A stretch of 64,000 nucleotides of DNA from an uncultured Nitrospirales bacterium (GTDB lineage: Bacteria > Nitrospirota > Thermodesulfovibrionia > UBA6902 > BMS3Bbin08): assembly GCA_964574765.1 (NCBI GenBank), contig CAZNPC010000001.1, positions 28,720 to 92,719 on the forward strand, given 5' to 3'. Within the stretch, counting starts at the first letter, position 1. Each line of letters opens with the position of its first letter. The notes under the pieces were generated by a model. The model ran no database searches, had not been told where the DNA came from, and saw only the letters and a list, made by a program, of their open reading frames with translations. The translations under genes were made by a program, and so were the position numbers. This document shows, piece by piece, positions 35,115 to 39,138 of the stretch.

Positions 35115-35951
35115 TTATTTTTTTACAGCCCGGTTCGAAATAATCTCCTCGTACCTGACTTTAGGAAATATTGTGAGCCTGCCGTCTACAGTAGCATCAA
35201 GGATTTTCCGTCCTGAGTCAAGATATGCCTTTTTTGCCATGGCATAAGCCTTTTCAGACATGATCAGGTCCGGAAGATTCCACCTGAAGCCTTTTCCAAA
35301 GTAATCCGGGTCAAAATGATTGGGGTCTTTGTCTTCAGATATTACTAGTTTGTGTGGCTCTCCTGAGGTTGTATAATTGTGGTCAACCCCTATAAGTATT
35401 ACTTCAGAAAAACCCATATAAAACGCCAACTGCATGGCGACATAGGTAACTGTTGCACCCTCCCATATCCCCTGTGTGCGTATGTCACGGCAGAATTTGG
35501 GACTGCTCCTGCTCGGGAGAAACACCGTGTCCGATGTAAAACGCAGGTGGCGTCTTGCGTTCCACCCGATAAATTTTGGGCAGTTCAGTTTTTCAATTTC
35601 GTCAGCGCTTTGCTCAATTACTAATTCATTAACTGAAACATAATACGTAGTAATGAAACCCACCCTGTCAAACAGCAGATAGATGCGGTTAAGACCGAAA
35701 GTGATCTCGTTTTTAAGGAGTGTCAGGTCCAGTTTGTTCAGGCTGGGCCCGTTCCCGATAATAAAGCAGCGCCCGCCTTTATGTTTATCTTTGAATGTTC
35801 TGAGTCTTCGCATACTTCCCCAGAACGTATGGCTTACCATACACTTGGCGAGAGTCTCAATGTCGCCATATCTGCCTGCTATCAGCTCAAAGGCAGCCTC
35901 TTTCAATATCGGTCGGAGTATTTTTTTTGCTGCTGTCTTAATTGTGTTCAT
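35115..35951 (-). CDS. DUF115-family protein (Maf/Cst sialyltransferase-like fold), putative CMP-sugar-dependent glycosyltransferase
   Basis: CFIIGNGPSL motif (compare the Campylobacter Cst-II and Maf N-terminus xIIAGNGPSL) and ATVTYVAMQLAFYMGFSEVILIGVDHNY (compare SGVYMCAVAIALGYKEIYLSGIDFY). Confidence 0.55.
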   Translation of the reverse strand: MNTIKTAAKKILRPILKEAAFELIAGRYGDIETLAKCMVSHTFWGSMRRLRTFKDKHKGGRCFIIGNGPSLNKLDLTLLKNEITFGLNRIYLLFDRVGFITTYYVSVNELVIEQSADEIEKLNCPKFIGWNARRHLRFTSDTVFLPSRSSPKFCRDIRTQGIWEGATVTYVAMQLAFYMGFSEVILIGVDHNYTTSGEPHKLVISEDKDPNHFDPDYFGKGFRWNLPDLIMSEKAYAMAKKAYLDSGRKILDATVDGRLTIFPKVRYEEIISNRAVKK

Positions 35952-36121
35952 TTCCGCTTTAAACGTTGATTTTAGCCATTTTGCCCATCTAATAGGTTCT
36001 TTCCTTCGAAATCTCGCAAAATGAAAACATCATCTGTGATAAGCTGCAGCTGCGTAATAATTCCAAAGCTGTCTTCCTATAGCTCTTTTACCGGCATTTA
36101 AAATATTGGAAGGATTTTTTT

Positions 36122-36871
36122 TCATTCTGTGCTCAACCTGGCTAGTGCACCGCCATCGACAACGATCGCCTCTCCGGTTATAAAAGAGGACCTGTCATTA
36201 TCCGCCAGGAACAGTATCGACTGTGCTATTTCCTCCGGCTTTCCTATGCGTCCAAGCGGTGTTCTCCTGCCCAGTTCCGTTAACATATCATCATGGCCGC
36301 TGCCTTTGATATGACCGCGCTTCAGACCCGTTCTAAGCATATTTGTATCCACAGATCCTGGAAGCACCATATTTACGCGAATTCCGTCGTCGGCCAGTTC
36401 AACCGCAAGCGCCCTTGTAAAGGACAGGGCGCCGCCTTTGCTTGCCGCGTAAGCAGAGATGTTTTTTGAAGTCGCTAAAGCATGAACAGAACCCACATTG
36501 ACAATAGACCCTCCGGGCTTTCGCAAAAACCTGTATGAATAGCGGAGAGCCAGATATATAGAGTTCAGATTAGAGCCTATTACCGAGTCCCATTCATCCG
36601 TCTTCATATCAATAACAGGCTTACATATCTGCACGGCGGCATTATTAACAAGAACGTCCAGCCTGCCTAAGATTTTTCCGGCTTTATTGAATATCTTTTC
36701 TGCTGAATCCTCAACGGAGACATCTCCCTTGATGAAATGGATTTTGTCGACAGGTTTGCTCATATCCTGTATATCAATGCCTGCCACCGTCCAGCCAGCA
36801 TTAATAAAGGCTTTGGCAGCGGCTCTGCCGATTCCGCCTGATACACCGGTAATTAGAGCTGTTTTATTCAT
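36122..36871 (-). CDS. SDR family oxidoreductase
   Basis: TGVSGGIGRAAA, NNAA, YAASKGG motifs. Confidence 0.8.
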   Translation of the reverse strand: MNKTALITGVSGGIGRAAAKAFINAGWTVAGIDIQDMSKPVDKIHFIKGDVSVEDSAEKIFNKAGKILGRLDVLVNNAAVQICKPVIDMKTDEWDSVIGSNLNSIYLALRYSYRFLRKPGGSIVNVGSVHALATSKNISAYAASKGGALSFTRALAVELADDGIRVNMVLPGSVDTNMLRTGLKRGHIKGSGHDDMLTELGRRTPLGRIGKPEEIAQSILFLADNDRSSFITGEAIVVDGGALARLSTE

Positions 36872-37812
36872 TTTTTCTCCTTTTGCAGTTCCTCAAGCAA
36901 ATTCTTAACGGTGTTTTTATGAACCTTTTCCCATGCTAAGGGGCTGGAGTTGGAGTTATGAGGCGCAAGCAAGACGTTGTTTAATCTTCTGAGTGGGCTA
37001 TTCTCAGGCAGAGGTTCGACTTCAAAGACGTCAAGTGCAGCACCGGCTATGTTCTTTGCCTGAAGGGCCTCAATAAGTTCAGCTTCATTTACTAGTGGTC
37101 CTCTTGCGGTATTTATAAGATAAGCAGACGGTTTCATAAGCTCAAATTCCTTTTGCCCCATGATATGATAACTTGTTGGATTCAGGTCACAACATACAGT
37201 CACATAATCCGCATTTTTCAAAAGATCCTCTTTTGACATCATTTCAACACGGTTTTCCGCGATAAAAGCTTTTGGTATTTCCACGATATCATTGCCTAAC
37301 AGGCGCATGCCGAATGCAGCAGCTCTCAGGGCTACTGCCCTGCCCACATTACCCACACCGATAATTCCAAGCGTGCATTCCGCAAGCGAAGTTCCGGGTA
37401 TCTTCTCCCACCTGCCTGCCTGCATATTCTCATTCATCCACAGCAGTTTTCTTGCAAAACAGAGAACGTATCCCATTACTGAATCGGCAACCGGCACTGA
37501 AAAGGCATCGGGAGTATTTCGTATTGCCACACCTCTGGCGCTGGCCGCTTTTTTGTCTATTGAATCCATGCCTGTTCCCCATTTTGATATAACCTTAAGT
37601 TTATGCGCGGCCTTAAAAACACGGTCCGTGAATTCGTCATCTCCTGATATTACACCGTCAATATCTTCAATAAGTTTTAAAAGCTCCTCTTCAGATAGTC
37701 TCTCTTTAACAGGAGGGGTAATAATTTCAATATCATTTTCCTCAAGAATTTTTCGATATTTTTTAGGAAGAGGCTGCATATAGGGTGCGGAAACCAAAAC
37801 CTTAAATCCCAT
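36868..37812 (-). CDS. D-isomer-specific 2-hydroxyacid dehydrogenase (glycerate or phosphoglycerate dehydrogenase-like)
   Basis: GIIGVGNVGRAVALRAAAFGMRLLGND NAD motif. Catalytic-domain motifs. 314 aa. Confidence 0.8.
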   Translation of the reverse strand: MGFKVLVSAPYMQPLPKKYRKILEENDIEIITPPVKERLSEEELLKLIEDIDGVISGDDEFTDRVFKAAHKLKVISKWGTGMDSIDKKAASARGVAIRNTPDAFSVPVADSVMGYVLCFARKLLWMNENMQAGRWEKIPGTSLAECTLGIIGVGNVGRAVALRAAAFGMRLLGNDIVEIPKAFIAENRVEMMSKEDLLKNADYVTVCCDLNPTSYHIMGQKEFELMKPSAYLINTARGPLVNEAELIEALQAKNIAGAALDVFEVEPLPENSPLRRLNNVLLAPHNSNSSPLAWEKVHKNTVKNLLEELQKEKK

Positions 37813-38492
37813 TATTTACGCTCCTTTCGCATCTGTTTATACAGGAACTCTGCCATAAGAAAATCGAGTTCTTCGTCAATATCAAGGGCTTCGAGCCTGT
37901 TAATTTCGAACATAAGGGGCCTGTTTCCAATGCGGTTACGCCCTGATTCAAGATTTTCCCGGTTAAAGATATATATGTTCGAGTTTTCTTCAAACACAGG
38001 GGGCAAATCCTGTGTGCGAAGCAGTTCATCTGGATTGTGATTTAAAGGCCCTGTTTCCGCGCTCCAGAGGCGGCTTTGTAAGCGGCTGACTGAAAAAAGA
38101 GAGTCATAGGATGGCAGTTTGCTTAAGAAAGTATTGATGGCCGACGTAATGGTTTCCGGCCTCAACAGAGGATTGGTGCTGTGGGTCTGAAGATACCAGT
38201 CAGCATCTGTCTGGGTGACGTCGTACAGAAGGACCTCATTCATTGGTATACTGCCTGCCCTGAGATGTTCAGGCCGCTCAATGACGCGAACTCCGGGAAA
38301 TTTCTTAGCCGCATCTTTCTGAATAAATGCACTGTCAGTGTCTATCATAATTTCAGATATTAAGCGGCATTCGAGGAGAGTCGAGATTATATTATGGTAC
38401 AATGGGCGGCCATTAAAGGACCGATAGTTTTTCCCGGGCACGCGGTCACTTTCATGACGCATGGGCACAAGTGCGACGATTTTATCTGCCAT
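37812..38492 (-). CDS. acylneuraminate/CMP-sugar cytidylyltransferase family protein (CTP_transf_3)
   Basis: IVALVPMRHESDRVPGKNYRSFNGRPL ... IMIDTDS, the NeuA/KdsB/PseF-type nucleotidyltransferase N-terminus. Confidence 0.7.
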   Translation of the reverse strand: MADKIVALVPMRHESDRVPGKNYRSFNGRPLYHNIISTLLECRLISEIMIDTDSAFIQKDAAKKFPGVRVIERPEHLRAGSIPMNEVLLYDVTQTDADWYLQTHSTNPLLRPETITSAINTFLSKLPSYDSLFSVSRLQSRLWSAETGPLNHNPDELLRTQDLPPVFEENSNIYIFNRENLESGRNRIGNRPLMFEINRLEALDIDEELDFLMAEFLYKQMRKERK

Positions 38493-39138
38493 CAGACATT
38501 ACCTCCATGGAAGGTACTAAGACCGCTCTGGCCGGTGCGCCTTCCGCCCCCATAAGTTTCAAAGGCAGACATAAAAGCTCATATTGTCCGGGAATGGCAT
38601 CTGACAGATTGAGTCCCTCTAAAATAACTGTTCCCGCCTCAAGCAGGATGCGGTGGACATTCGGTGCACCATGATAACGCTGTATTGAAAGGTAATCGAT
38701 GCCGGCAAGCATAATGCCATTTTTAACTATCCACGCGGCTGCATCCTCGGTCAATGCTACGTAGTCGGGATTAAAACCTTCCTTGCTCCAGAGGCCTGAA
38801 TTTTTGGTTTTAAAGAGAATCTTTTCTGTACTATCCGGCAGGCTGAGTTCAGAAAGATCCCTCTCCCCTATCGAATCGACACTGGTCAGATCAGCTACAA
38901 AGACCGGGCCACATAAAATGTCAAGCGGAAGCAGATCTACACTTTCTCCGACTTCAATATAGTGTAACGGTGCTTCTACATGGGTACCAGCATGCACATC
39001 ACATTCAATGGTTGAGTCATTGGACATATCACCTTTTCCTATTCTCTTTACCCATTTATGACGTATACCGATACTCTCGGGCCAAACCGGCATTCCTTTA
39101 TACAAAGTTACCGAGATATCAATGATGCTCATAATCAA
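38482..39138 (-). CDS. cyclase family protein (kynurenine formamidase-like metal hydrolase fold)
   Basis: HAGTHVEAPLHY motif of PF04199. 218 aa. Confidence 0.7.
   Translation of the reverse strand: MIMSIIDISVTLYKGMPVWPESIGIRHKWVKRIGKGDMSNDSTIECDVHAGTHVEAPLHYIEVGESVDLLPLDILCGPVFVADLTSVDSIGERDLSELSLPDSTEKILFKTKNSGLWSKEGFNPDYVALTEDAAAWIVKNGIMLAGIDYLSIQRYHGAPNVHRILLEAGTVILEGLNLSDAIPGQYELLCLPLKLMGAEGAPARAVLVPSMEVMSDGR

Follow-up and report, generated by a model that had tools for sequence, protein, structure and literature searches.

Which sugar acid is activated by a CMP-type module that has a NeuA-like cytidylyltransferase and a sialyltransferase-like protein, but no nearby NeuB synthase to supply a nonulosonate? 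The question is raised by a glycan locus of an uncultured Nitrospirota bacterium, which we analysed within a 64-kb stretch of DNA (the window) and together with related loci (83 examined).

Gene order and distribution of the cassette

The original prediction had named five genes: those for a cytidylyltransferase (CT), a 2-hydroxyacid dehydrogenase (HADH), an SDR, a cyclase-family hydrolase and a DUF115 protein. All five are real, lie on the minus strand and match Pfam above the gathering score, but the boundary drawn around them was too narrow: a conserved GT2 glycosyltransferase gene (39119-40069) had been left out and the wide conservation of the arrangement had been missed. According to the gene calls and Pfam, the genes for GT2, cyclase, CT, HADH, SDR and DUF115 constitute a co-directional six-gene unit. 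The features of the region are (window coordinates, strand, description):

31730-32950, minus: Wzt ATPase with C-terminal carbohydrate-binding domain, downstream (Pfam ABC_tran, Wzt_C)
33580-34461, minus: Wzm permease, downstream (Pfam ABC2_membrane)
35096..35110, minus: terminator-like hairpin plus T-run, putative operon end (consensus scan, pattern match only; TGCCGGGAGCCGGTG AATTGTTTTT)
35115-35951, minus: single-domain DUF115/MptE-like protein, 278 aa (Pfam MptE-like, 43.9 bits; motif IIGNGPSLNKLD)
36122-36871, minus: classical SDR (Pfam adh_short_C2, 194 bits)
36868-37812, minus: D-isomer-specific HADH (Pfam 2-Hacid_dh_C, 191.6 bits; 2-Hacid_dh, 63.6 bits)
37812-38492, minus: CT, predicted NeuA-type CMP-ulosonate synthetase of a distinct clade (Pfam CTP_transf_3, PF02348, 98.9 bits)
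38482-39138, minus: cyclase-family metal-dependent hydrolase (Pfam Cyclase, PF04199, 70.1 bits; motif HAGTHVEAPLH)
39119..40069, minus: GT2 glycosyltransferase, first conserved cassette gene and putative partner transferase (Pfam Glycos_transf_2, 82 bits)
40066..42425, minus: GT1-like 455-aa protein and methyltransferase, upstream in the same translationally coupled operon (weak Glycos_transf_1 and Methyltransf_11 matches; overlapping stops/starts)

Overlapping stop and start codons run along the minus strand from 42425 to 36122 (the GT2 stop overlaps the cyclase start and the HADH ATG overlaps the CT stop), and 5 nt separate the DUF115 stop from the terminator-like hairpin. The GC content of the six-gene cassette is 44.8%, as compared to 39.7-39.9% in the flanks. 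The GT1-like and methyltransferase genes (GC 38-41%) were seen only in the near-identical contigs L001 and L002; they are lineage-specific and lie outside the conserved cassette.

CTs of this clade occur in more than 567 species and reach Bacteria, Archaea and giant viruses, the homologs from other phyla being 58-77% identical. The association of the genes is far beyond chance, since most of the 83 loci, which come from a wide range of phyla (among them Chloroflexota, cyanobacteria, Methanosarcinales and Planctomycetota), share this gene order. The partners of CT were recovered in the following numbers of these loci: HADH (75), SDR (69), DUF115 (55), GT2 (52) and cyclase (21). HADH directly follows CT in 67 loci, DUF115 where present mostly sits directly 3' of SDR, and a GT2 ortholog (47-69% identity) was found immediately upstream of CT or cyclase in 50 of the 69 loci with enough upstream sequence.

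Probable activation and transfer of a keto-sugar acid

The CT had been placed in the NeuA/KdsB family, and the comparison upholds the NeuA half of that placement: the alignment to NeuA structures is full-length and the catalytic and sugar-binding residues are kept (R12, K21, N22, Q102, RTQDLP, N170, Y174, DIDEELD), whereas the KdsB NCBIfam models score at most 38.6 bits; the top NCBIfam match, PseF (72.9 bits), stays far under its cut-off of 205.7. Judged from its sequence the enzyme is a NeuA-type CMP-ulosonate synthetase, yet it is only ~30% identical to any characterised NeuA, scores under every NCBIfam equivalog cut-off and bears a signature (PMRHxSxRVPGKN, THSTNP, EENS) that none of NeuA, PseF and KdsB has. 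A CMP-type activation and transfer module, as had been proposed, is borne out by these features. The closest solved relative is the CMP-Kdn synthetase of Prymnesium parvum (PpNeuA, 9t4z), which shares the PF02348 fold, the CTP-, Mg- and sugar-binding residues and the Kdn gatekeeper arginine (PMC12934254): the invariant R187 of CT lines up with Arg196, and the replacement R196L shifts the preference of the Prymnesium enzyme from Kdn to Neu5Ac (PMC12934254). At this position Leu, Phe or Met is found in enzymes whose substrates are N-acyl nonulosonates. On account of the Kdn-type arginine, the substrate of CT is probably a non-aminated keto-sugar acid.

For the DUF115 protein, the AF2 model (pLDDT 89) has the Maf glycosyltransferase 5mu5 as top fold match (E 8e-7), with MptE and GT29 sialyltransferases next, and in the family profile GNGPSL, the nucleotide-binding motif of Cst-II (GT42), and LGxxEVxLxGxD align with Cst-II. 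Unlike Maf, the protein is single-domain and lacks flanking domains; it is small like WaaZ, the Kdo III transferase, and many of its homologs carry PF27901 (WaaZ_KDO_III), and there is a weak TIGR04437 match. Based on the modelled fold we propose that it acts as a CMP-ulosonate transferase.

The absence of a NeuB/PseI synthase from the window was confirmed: neither the Pfam scan of its ORFs of at least 150 aa (all except three) nor a NeuB HMM, derived from Chloroflexota neighbours and run against every six-frame segment of 80 aa or longer, returned a match, and NeuB was likewise absent within 10 kb of the cassette in all 33 non-Chloroflexota loci. In contrast to NeuA systems, the cassette has no NeuB, phosphatase or epimerase that would supply a nonulosonate; CT is instead accompanied by a 2-HADH, a classical SDR and a hydrolase.

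A candidate route by oxidation

Among solved structures, the SDR is closest to glucose 1-dehydrogenase (3vtz) and to relatives of aldohexose dehydrogenase (2dtd/2zk7), and the NCBIfam models for aldose/glucose 1-dehydrogenases score high, although every NCBIfam match of both SDR and HADH stays below cut-off; we propose an NAD-dependent aldose 1-dehydrogenase. The SDR is tied to the pathway of CT by fusion proteins of the two in 11 of the 14 giant-virus loci. In HADH the catalytic Arg/Glu/His triad, which in 2-HADH enzymes acts beside a carboxylate, is conserved. Members of this family interconvert gluconate and 2-ketogluconate (GhrB/TkrA), and the PDB matches include a 2-ketogluconate reductase (9m0t); the proposed function is that of an aldonate 2-dehydrogenase yielding a 2-keto acid.

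The SDR and HADH would be connected by a lactone, an intermediate implied by the SMP-30/gluconolactonases (SGL, PF08450) that relatives of the cassette have recruited: on a Phycisphaerales chromosome (L061) CT, HADH, SDR and SGL follow each other, with a stop/start overlap at SGL (PF08450, 3.5e-57); on a Thalassovita plasmid (L092) SDR, SGL and an MptE-like gene are adjoined by GT, CT and HADH; and in 5 of the 14 giant-virus loci SGL adjoins the CT-SDR gene. The cyclase, with its conserved metal motif HxGTHxExPxH and its best solved relatives among metal-dependent hydrolases (1r61/8hmo) and kynurenine formamidases, is proposed to be an accessory lactone hydrolase, although we know of no lactonase activity in PF04199. 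No locus examined had both cyclase and SGL, and none of the 83 had both cyclase and NeuB.

With a probability of roughly one half, we therefore favour the joint reading that the six genes are a self-contained, horizontally mobile cassette and that it serves to produce and attach a CMP-activated non-aminated 2-ulosonic (2-keto-aldonic) acid with no PEP- or pyruvate-condensing synthase. By oxidation at C1 the SDR would turn a free aldose into the aldonolactone, which would open to the aldonate spontaneously or aided by the cyclase (in other lineages by SMP-30/gluconolactonase); HADH would oxidise C2 to the 2-keto acid, which would close to a ketopyranose with an anomeric carboxylate; CT would join its anomeric hydroxyl to CMP; DUF115 (Maf/Cst-II/WaaZ-like) would move the residue from CMP onto a glycan; and the tightly linked GT2 would add the neighbouring sugar. 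If true, a sialic-acid-like keto-acid would be made from an ordinary sugar by oxidation, activated with CMP and attached to a surface glycan. The earlier suspicion that the moiety is not a classical nonulosonate agrees with the invariant CT arginine, the lactonase partners and the CT-SDR fusions, which favour an unusual non-aminated keto-sugar acid over the 5-N-acyl type.

The first steps would resemble oxidative, non-phosphorylative sugar pathways such as that of glucose dehydrogenase and gluconolactonase. Those pathways are catabolic and proceed via a dehydratase or kinase, neither of which was found among the annotated recurrent neighbour-gene clusters, whereas the cassette genes are embedded among GT, CT and sialyltransferase-like genes in glycan loci. 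Literature searches retrieved no CMP-2-keto-aldonate, no glycan-bound hex-2-ulosonic acid (to our knowledge none is known) and, in the searchable literature, no description of the cassette or route.

Other possible origins of the residue and its putative place in the glycan

A possible origin, though clearly less probable, is a Kdn-type 5-hydroxy nonulosonate from a NeuB-type synthase encoded elsewhere, which CT would activate and HADH and SDR would epimerise by oxidising and re-reducing one hydroxyl, on the CMP-sugar or before activation, with DUF115 transferring the epimer. A dedicated CTP_transf_3 CT, a classical SDR and a second NAD(P) oxidoreductase are indeed the three parts of the established nonulosonate-epimerisation systems: ElaA (Gfo/Idh/MocA), ElaB (CT) and ElaC (classical SDR) of A. 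baumannii KL49 perform C8 epimerisation of CMP-legionaminic acid (PMC13656337), and in the prophage system Pse is converted to 8ePse by EpaB (SDR) together with EpaA, in which CT and an aldo-keto reductase are fused (PMC12053666). The EpaA fusion to an oxidoreductase has a counterpart in the fusion of CT to SDR in giant viruses. The gatekeeper arginine shared with a CMP-Kdn synthetase fits this origin too, as do 26 Chloroflexota loci with NeuB 2-8 kb upstream. Moreover, two loci (L067, L073) have GT2, CT and DUF115 and lack HADH and SDR; the substrate of CT can therefore exist locally without these two, as fits optional tailoring enzymes. However, the adjacent NeuB is accompanied by a second NeuA-HAD of its own, with Met as the gatekeeper residue, and likewise by a Capsule_synth-like transferase of its own, and NeuB is missing from the window and near the 33 non-Chloroflexota loci. 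ElaABC and EpaAB accompany or depend on lga/psa synthase genes and rely on Gfo/Idh/MocA or aldo-keto reductases, whereas the cassette is mostly without such synthases, has a D-2-hydroxyacid dehydrogenase instead and recruits lactonases, for which epimerisation has no need, yet which are coupled to SDR in L061, L092 and five giant-virus loci. The site of action of 2-HADH enzymes is the carbon beside the carboxylate, not C4, C7 or C8 of a nonulosonate. Finally, the movement of the cassette as a unit across Bacteria, Archaea and giant viruses is an argument that its pathway starts from a common metabolite.

Unlikely, in our estimation, is a 4-hydroxy-2-keto acid formed by a class II (HpcH/HpaI) pyruvate/hydroxypyruvate aldolase, whose gene would lie beside that of CT in some relatives but at another site of this genome, with HADH giving the keto-acid donor (e.g. 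glycerate to hydroxypyruvate) and SDR tailoring the product. Such a variant, in which SDR and lactonase are replaced, is seen in a Chloroflexota locus (L074: CT, HpcH aldolase, HADH, HAD and an Epimerase-family enzyme) and on an Acuticoccus plasmid (HpcH aldolase, CT, HADH, HAD and an oxidoreductase), both with CTs bearing the clade signature EENS...R-I-G; L074 also carries a cyclase, which weakens the case for the cyclase as a lactonase. The aldolase is nevertheless confined to 2 of ~100 loci, Pfam scans found no HpcH aldolase in the window ORFs tested, and the SDR-lactonase coupling and CT-SDR fusions would be left unexplained. We consider it very improbable that HADH is a phosphoglycerate or glycerate dehydrogenase and CT forms a CDP- or CMP-linked small hydroxy-acid, akin to the CDP-glycerol-like unit suggested before: phosphoglycerate dehydrogenases are the top NCBIfam and PDB matches of HADH, but PGDH scores 207.9 bits, far under its 454-bit cut-off, HADH has GDD in place of the equivalents of Arg54 and Arg135 of human PHGDH, which speaks against phosphoglycerate as substrate, CT resembles NeuA from end to end and keeps the Gln, Asn and Tyr that bind the sugar as well as the Kdn-type Arg, a signature unlike that of phospho-alcohol cytidylyltransferases, and the DUF115 fold indicates sialyltransferase-like chemistry.

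As to the destination of the putative 2-ulosonic acid, the cassette is placed within an ABC-transporter (Wzm/Wzt-CBM) glycan locus, with its export genes at 31730..34461 (minus strand). Kdo systems of the WaaZ/WbbB type differ in that the window has no Kdo genes and CT is not KdsB. In Klebsiella O12 beta-Kdo is the chain-terminal cap, and the ABC-transporter O-antigen terminated by WbbB resembles the present locus in its Wzm and Wzt with Wzt_C; in view of this setting, and by analogy only, the residue transferred by the cassette may be a chain-terminal cap as well.

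The six-gene cassette and its conservation

The original prediction described a CMP-type activation module of five genes, and all five were recovered at the positions that it had given, on the minus strand and with Pfam matches above the gathering score; it had, however, left out the glycosyltransferase gene at 39119-40069 (GT2), which belongs to the same unit.

Cassette genes named in the original prediction (Pfam matches above the gathering score)
35115-35951, minus strand, DUF115/MptE-like protein, 278 aa, motif IIGNGPSL
36122-36871, minus strand, classical short-chain dehydrogenase (SDR), 249 aa
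36868-37812, minus strand, D-2-hydroxyacid dehydrogenase (HADH), 314 aa
37812-38492, minus strand, CTP_transf_3 cytidylyltransferase (CT), 226 aa
38482-39138, minus strand, cyclase (PF04199), 218 aa, motif HAGTHVEAPLH

Start/stop overlaps run unbroken from a methyltransferase gene (42425) down to the SDR gene, and pattern matching recovered a terminator-like hairpin 3' of the DUF115 stop codon. In base composition the six genes stand apart as an island within the window (GC 44.8% vs 39.7-39.9% on both flanks), and the GT1-like and methyltransferase genes that adjoin them are without conservation in other loci. What is conserved, and very widely so, is a cassette of all six genes, with the cyclase as an accessory part. 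Among the taxa with CT homologs of 58-77% identity are cyanobacteria, Methanoperedens and Chloroflexota, and sampling one genome for each species placed CT relatives in at least 567 species. Over 83 inspected loci, the cassette members were found as follows: HADH in 75 (directly 3' of the CT in 67), SDR in 69, DUF115 in 55 (mostly right behind the SDR), the GT2 ortholog in 52 (immediately upstream) and the cyclase in 21 (between GT2 and CT). The gene order is identical in Lyngbya PCC 8106, in Ca. Methanoperedens and on a 3-Mb contig. A solitary CT was encountered in four Saprospiraceae/Bacteroidota loci (L053, L054, L082 and L087); the context of L087, the one inspected in detail, was uninformative. 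NCBIfam (June 2026) held no specific model for any cassette member, and our literature search recovered no paper describing the cassette.

To our knowledge, the biosynthesis of every CMP-activated sugar described so far (sialic, pseudaminic and legionaminic acids, Kdn, Kdo) relies on a PEP-condensing synthase. The absence of such a synthase (NeuB) from the 64-kb window, as originally noted, was borne out by a Pfam search that covered every ORF of at least 150 aa except three, and the NeuB HMM matched none of the six-frame segments of at least 80 aa; nor was a NeuB found within 10 kb in the 33 non-Chloroflexota loci. In 26 of the 50 Chloroflexota loci a NeuB gene does lie near the cassette, upstream, together with a NeuA-HAD fusion and a Capsule_synth-like protein, and all 26 lack the cyclase. 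These loci (within L024-L086) carry a separate acid-sugar set 2-10 kb upstream of the CT, consisting of a short NeuB (~292 aa), the NeuA-HAD fusion (~409 aa, with a Met gatekeeper), a 538-aa Capsule_synth protein (KpsC/S-like) and a Gfo/Idh/MocA oxidoreductase. NeuB was rejected as a hidden partner of the cassette: it is restricted to Chloroflexota loci and has its own cytidylyltransferase alongside. Since the Chloroflexota nonulosonate thus has its own cytidylyltransferase and transferase, it can do without the CT of the cassette.

Predicted substrate of the cytidylyltransferase and the candidate transferase

The CT matches CTP_transf_3 with 98.9 bits (cut-off 22.6 bits; residues 6-220 on profile positions 1-214 of 217) and aligns over its full length to solved NeuA enzymes, the best match being the Prymnesium parvum CMP-Kdn synthetase 9t4z (PpNeuA). 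The equivalog scores for the named enzymes were not reached (72.9 bits vs 205.7 for PseF; at most 38.6 bits vs cut-offs of 155-281 for the KdsB models); judged by these scores, the CT is not an ortholog of PseF, KdsB or any other named enzyme. Its residues R12, K21, N22, Q102, N170, Y174 and D204/D206 align with NeuA residues and show little or no variation within the clade, the N. meningitidis references being R12, K21, D209 and D211 (catalytic, CTP/Mg) and Q104, N175 and Y179 (sugar-binding). The roles of the NeuA residues are partly background on the N. meningitidis enzyme. For another part they were taken from PMC12934254, which also reports that Arg196 of PpNeuA determines specificity for Kdn and that the R196L exchange switches the enzyme to Neu5Ac. 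With the PpNeuA chain offset of 18 residues taken into account, Arg196 is the R of KCRLGEK, and both HMMER and MAFFT alignments pair it with R187 of the CT (GRNRIGNRP). R187 is invariant in the bacterial, archaeal and plasmid members, in loci with an aldolase-containing variant of the cassette and in most giant-virus members; the gatekeeper elsewhere is Leu (mouse), Phe (N. meningitidis and PseF) or Met (the NeuB-linked NeuA-HAD of Chloroflexota). By sequence, the CT is a PF02348 superfamily member with a Kdn-type specificity determinant, and the specificity predicted from R187 is for a 5-OH substrate and not for Kdn as such. As this Kdn-type arginine is invariant in the clade, the most likely substrate is a 2-ulosonic acid whose C5-equivalent position bears a hydroxyl in place of an N-acyl group.

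The DUF115 protein (PF01973, 43.9 bits vs a 34.6-bit cut-off) has the nucleotide-binding motif GNGPS at its N-terminus. A Foldseek search with its AF2 model (pLDDT 89) returned Maf 5mu5 on top (E 8e-7, TM 0.49), followed by MptE and GT29 sialyltransferases, and many DUF115 homologs match the model of the Kdo-transferase WaaZ. The single sequence had no match among PDB sequences; the family profile aligned GNGPSL and LGxxE..GxD with the CMP-binding motifs of Cst-II (weakly, E ~4e-3), its top two matches being designed repeat proteins and spurious. The reference catalytic bases are His188 of Cst-II and E324/D415 of Maf. This weak profile alignment places His188 on K220, with an invariant histidine (H212) 8 residues further upstream; D190/H191 show no variation either. 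On the strength of these fold and profile matches we propose that DUF115 is a CMP-ulosonate transferase of a Maf/Cst-like type.

A possible oxidative route and its alternatives

The HADH contains both domains of the D-isomer-specific 2-hydroxyacid dehydrogenases (PF02826, 191.6 bits; PF00389, 63.6 bits) and has kept the Arg-Glu-His triad (conserved NTARG, VEP and PHN). In human phosphoglycerate dehydrogenase (PHGDH), R54 and R135 are the phosphate-binding arginines. Their equivalents are absent from the HADH, where an acidic GDD is found instead ('IVRS' of PHGDH corresponds to 'I-SGDD'), and no cassette HADH has the two-residue R/K insert. A true phosphoglycerate dehydrogenase was rejected on these missing arginines and on the score of the PGDH equivalog TIGR01327, which stays far below its cut-off (207.9 bits vs 454). 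Both SDR and HADH have the Asp after beta-strand 2 that goes with NAD preference; because it varies among members of the HADH family, it was set aside as evidence.

The closest solved relatives of the SDR are glucose and aldohexose 1-dehydrogenases, and the best PDB match, glucose 1-dehydrogenase 3vtz, is suggestive of a sugar 1-dehydrogenase. The NCBIfam models for aldose and glucose dehydrogenases rank high for this protein, yet the scores remain under the curated cut-offs (NF005559, 188.2 bits vs 215; NF005007, 192.1 vs 341). Three independent contexts are more telling here than the NeuB neighbours in Chloroflexota: i) the locus on a Phycisphaerales chromosome (L061) has the order CT, HADH, SDR, SMP-30/gluconolactonase (SGL), GT2, with the start of the lactonase gene (PF08450, 3.5e-57) overlapping the SDR stop; ii) the Thalassovita gelatinovora plasmid pAge77 (L092) carries an SDR, an SMP-30 lactonase and an MptE-like gene beside a glycosyltransferase, the CT, the HADH and two more MptE-like genes, and has a separate kpsF/kdsB/kdsA set; and iii) 14 giant-virus contigs (L093-L106, from IMG/VR MAGs; contigs of up to 334 kb) encode members of the CT clade with 42-49% identity, which in 11 of the 14 are fused to the SDR in one protein of ~475-485 aa (PF02348 + adh_short), with HADH nearby in 12, SGL adjacent in five and a DUF115-like gene present in five. 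A published review on giant-virus glycans makes no mention of the CT-SDR fusion or the lactonase set. Gene fusion, as between CT and SDR, is a classical sign of two activities in one pathway; the coupling of a lactonase to the SDR is likewise a signature of sugar C1 oxidation. Instead of an SGL, the window has a PF04199 cyclase-family hydrolase with a putative lactonase role, and the two never occur together in one locus.

We therefore favour a model in which the SDR would oxidise an aldose at C1 to the lactone, which would open spontaneously or with the aid of the cyclase-family hydrolase or SGL; unaided opening would account for the dispensability of the hydrolase gene. The HADH would oxidise C2 of the aldonate, a step suggested by the triad, which acts next to a carboxylate, and by the loss of the PHGDH arginines. 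The 2-keto-aldonate would then cyclise, be activated by the CT and be transferred by DUF115, with GT2 probably forming an adjacent linkage. We assign this oxidative CMP-2-keto-aldonate model a probability of about 0.5. Slightly short of even odds is the more encompassing claim that the cassette produces a new class of CMP-activated sugars by a route independent of any synthase, in which an aldose is oxidised twice (C1 by SDR, C2 by HADH) to a 3-hydroxy-2-ulosonic (2-keto-aldonic) acid that is activated by a dedicated NeuA-like clade and installed by DUF115.

The strongest alternative, which we nevertheless consider unlikely, is a tailoring of a Kdn-type acid comparable to that by ElaABC and EpaAB, in which a cytidylyltransferase, a classical SDR and a second NAD(P) oxidoreductase act as C8 epimerisation modules for legionaminic or pseudaminic acid (PMC13656337, PMC12053666). 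The window has this composition, with CT, SDR and HADH adjacent. A CT of the Kdn type would be compatible with such tailoring, and two loci (L067 and L073) have kept GT2, CT and DUF115 and lack HADH and SDR, as expected of optional tailoring. However, the second oxidoreductase of the known modules is a Gfo/Idh/MocA enzyme or an aldo-keto reductase and not, as here, a D-2-hydroxyacid dehydrogenase, the window contains no lga or psa synthase genes, NeuB is absent near most loci, and both the lactonases of the relatives and the mobility of the cassette across domains of life argue against such tailoring.

Considerably less probable is a general dependence on an aldolase, although two relatives show that the CT-HADH core can be fed another way: in L074 (8303-16263) and in L089, on an Acuticoccus plasmid (14201-18653), an HpcH/HpaI aldolase, a HAD protein and an Epimerase-family enzyme are grouped with CT and HADH. 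The first of these also has the cyclase, which weakens its reading as a lactonase. That the HADH of this variant could be a PGDH supplying phosphohydroxypyruvate is unsupported, as it is without the Arg54 equivalent too. Downstream of the variant core, L074 encodes LicD and a fusion of PEP-mutase with CTP_transf_like, suggestive of decoration with a phosphonate. A phosphoglycerate or CDP-linked product is poorly supported, with the PGDH score, the lost PHGDH arginines, the NeuA-like CT with its Kdn-type arginine and the predicted ulosonate-type substrate all standing against it. The CT evidence also argues against the CDP-glycerol-like option of the original prediction, while the CMP activation and transfer that it described and the lack of a synthase in the window are supported.

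The cassette thus resembles the CMP-sialic-acid systems as a unit of activation and transfer and differs from the neu, pse and leg pathways in having no synthase in the locus. If the oxidative route is right, it represents a new biosynthetic logic, a CMP-ulosonate formed by two dehydrogenations, and probably a new monosaccharide. It would also explain annotations as 'acylneuraminate cytidylyltransferase' in genomes without NeuB, would give a large DUF115 subfamily a concrete function, and would offer a set of four enzymes that can be tested directly, with hosts available in culture (Thalassovita gelatinovora, Bellilinea caldifistulae, Methanosarcina, Lyngbya); by their CT-SDR fusions, giant viruses would carry the pathway too. 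Given the spread over Bacteria, Archaea and giant viruses, a sialic-acid-like surface residue may be common in environmental microbes, whose interactions with phages, hosts and minerals are shaped by acidic terminal residues.

The surrounding glycan locus

The surroundings in the window are a large ABC-transporter-type glycan locus, with two Wzm/Wzt pairs with Wzt_C, many GT2 genes, three sulfotransferases, radical-SAM genes, DegT aminotransferases and a GDP-mannose dehydratase. By its FabF homologs, the source organism is an uncultured member of the Nitrospirota (Thermodesulfovibrionia-like). Because Wzm and the carbohydrate-binding Wzt adjoin the cassette, it is plausible, by analogy with beta-Kdo chain terminators, that the residue added by DUF115 is a chain-terminal cap. 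Very large MptE-like proteins (900 to >1,500 aa) accompany the cassette on pAge77 (14722-20191) and in two other relatives (L091, 14117-16849; L004, 12055-13220), those of Lyngbya having TPR and methyltransferase domains; they are possibly chain-terminating or polymerising enzymes with a DUF115 module.

The 650-bp gap between DUF115 and Wzm (34462-35114; GC 36%) contains short interrupted frames that resemble N-terminal GT2 fragments (one beginning MKISIVTPT, another represented by a 24-residue stretch) and are probably pseudogene remnants at the edge of the cassette insertion. A '23S rRNA-intervening sequence protein' (PF05635, a four-helix bundle) is encoded between Wzm and Wzt of one pair (33081-33461). 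Two B12-binding radical-SAM proteins, one SPASM radical-SAM protein and one asparagine-synthase homolog (14503-15948, 20377-21765, 27135-28253 and 25364-27130) suggest that the polysaccharide is C-methylated or amidated in an unusual manner. Sulfation of the glycan is probable, with sulfotransferase genes at 30745-31686 and 42651-43688, in a relative (L001, 4542-5516) and, beside GDP-fucose genes, on a Gemmobacter plasmid. A NusG-family paralog (54663-55154) and an HTH protein, possibly a dedicated antiterminator, lie between the block of the second Wzm/Wzt pair and GDP-mannose dehydratase and the rhamnose-type genes (RmlD, NTP_transferase). Flanking the glycan locus are genes for a multihaem cytochrome of 758 aa (doubled CXXCH, MtrC-like domains) and for two beta-propeller proteins with NHL repeats (5458-8836, 61091-62152).
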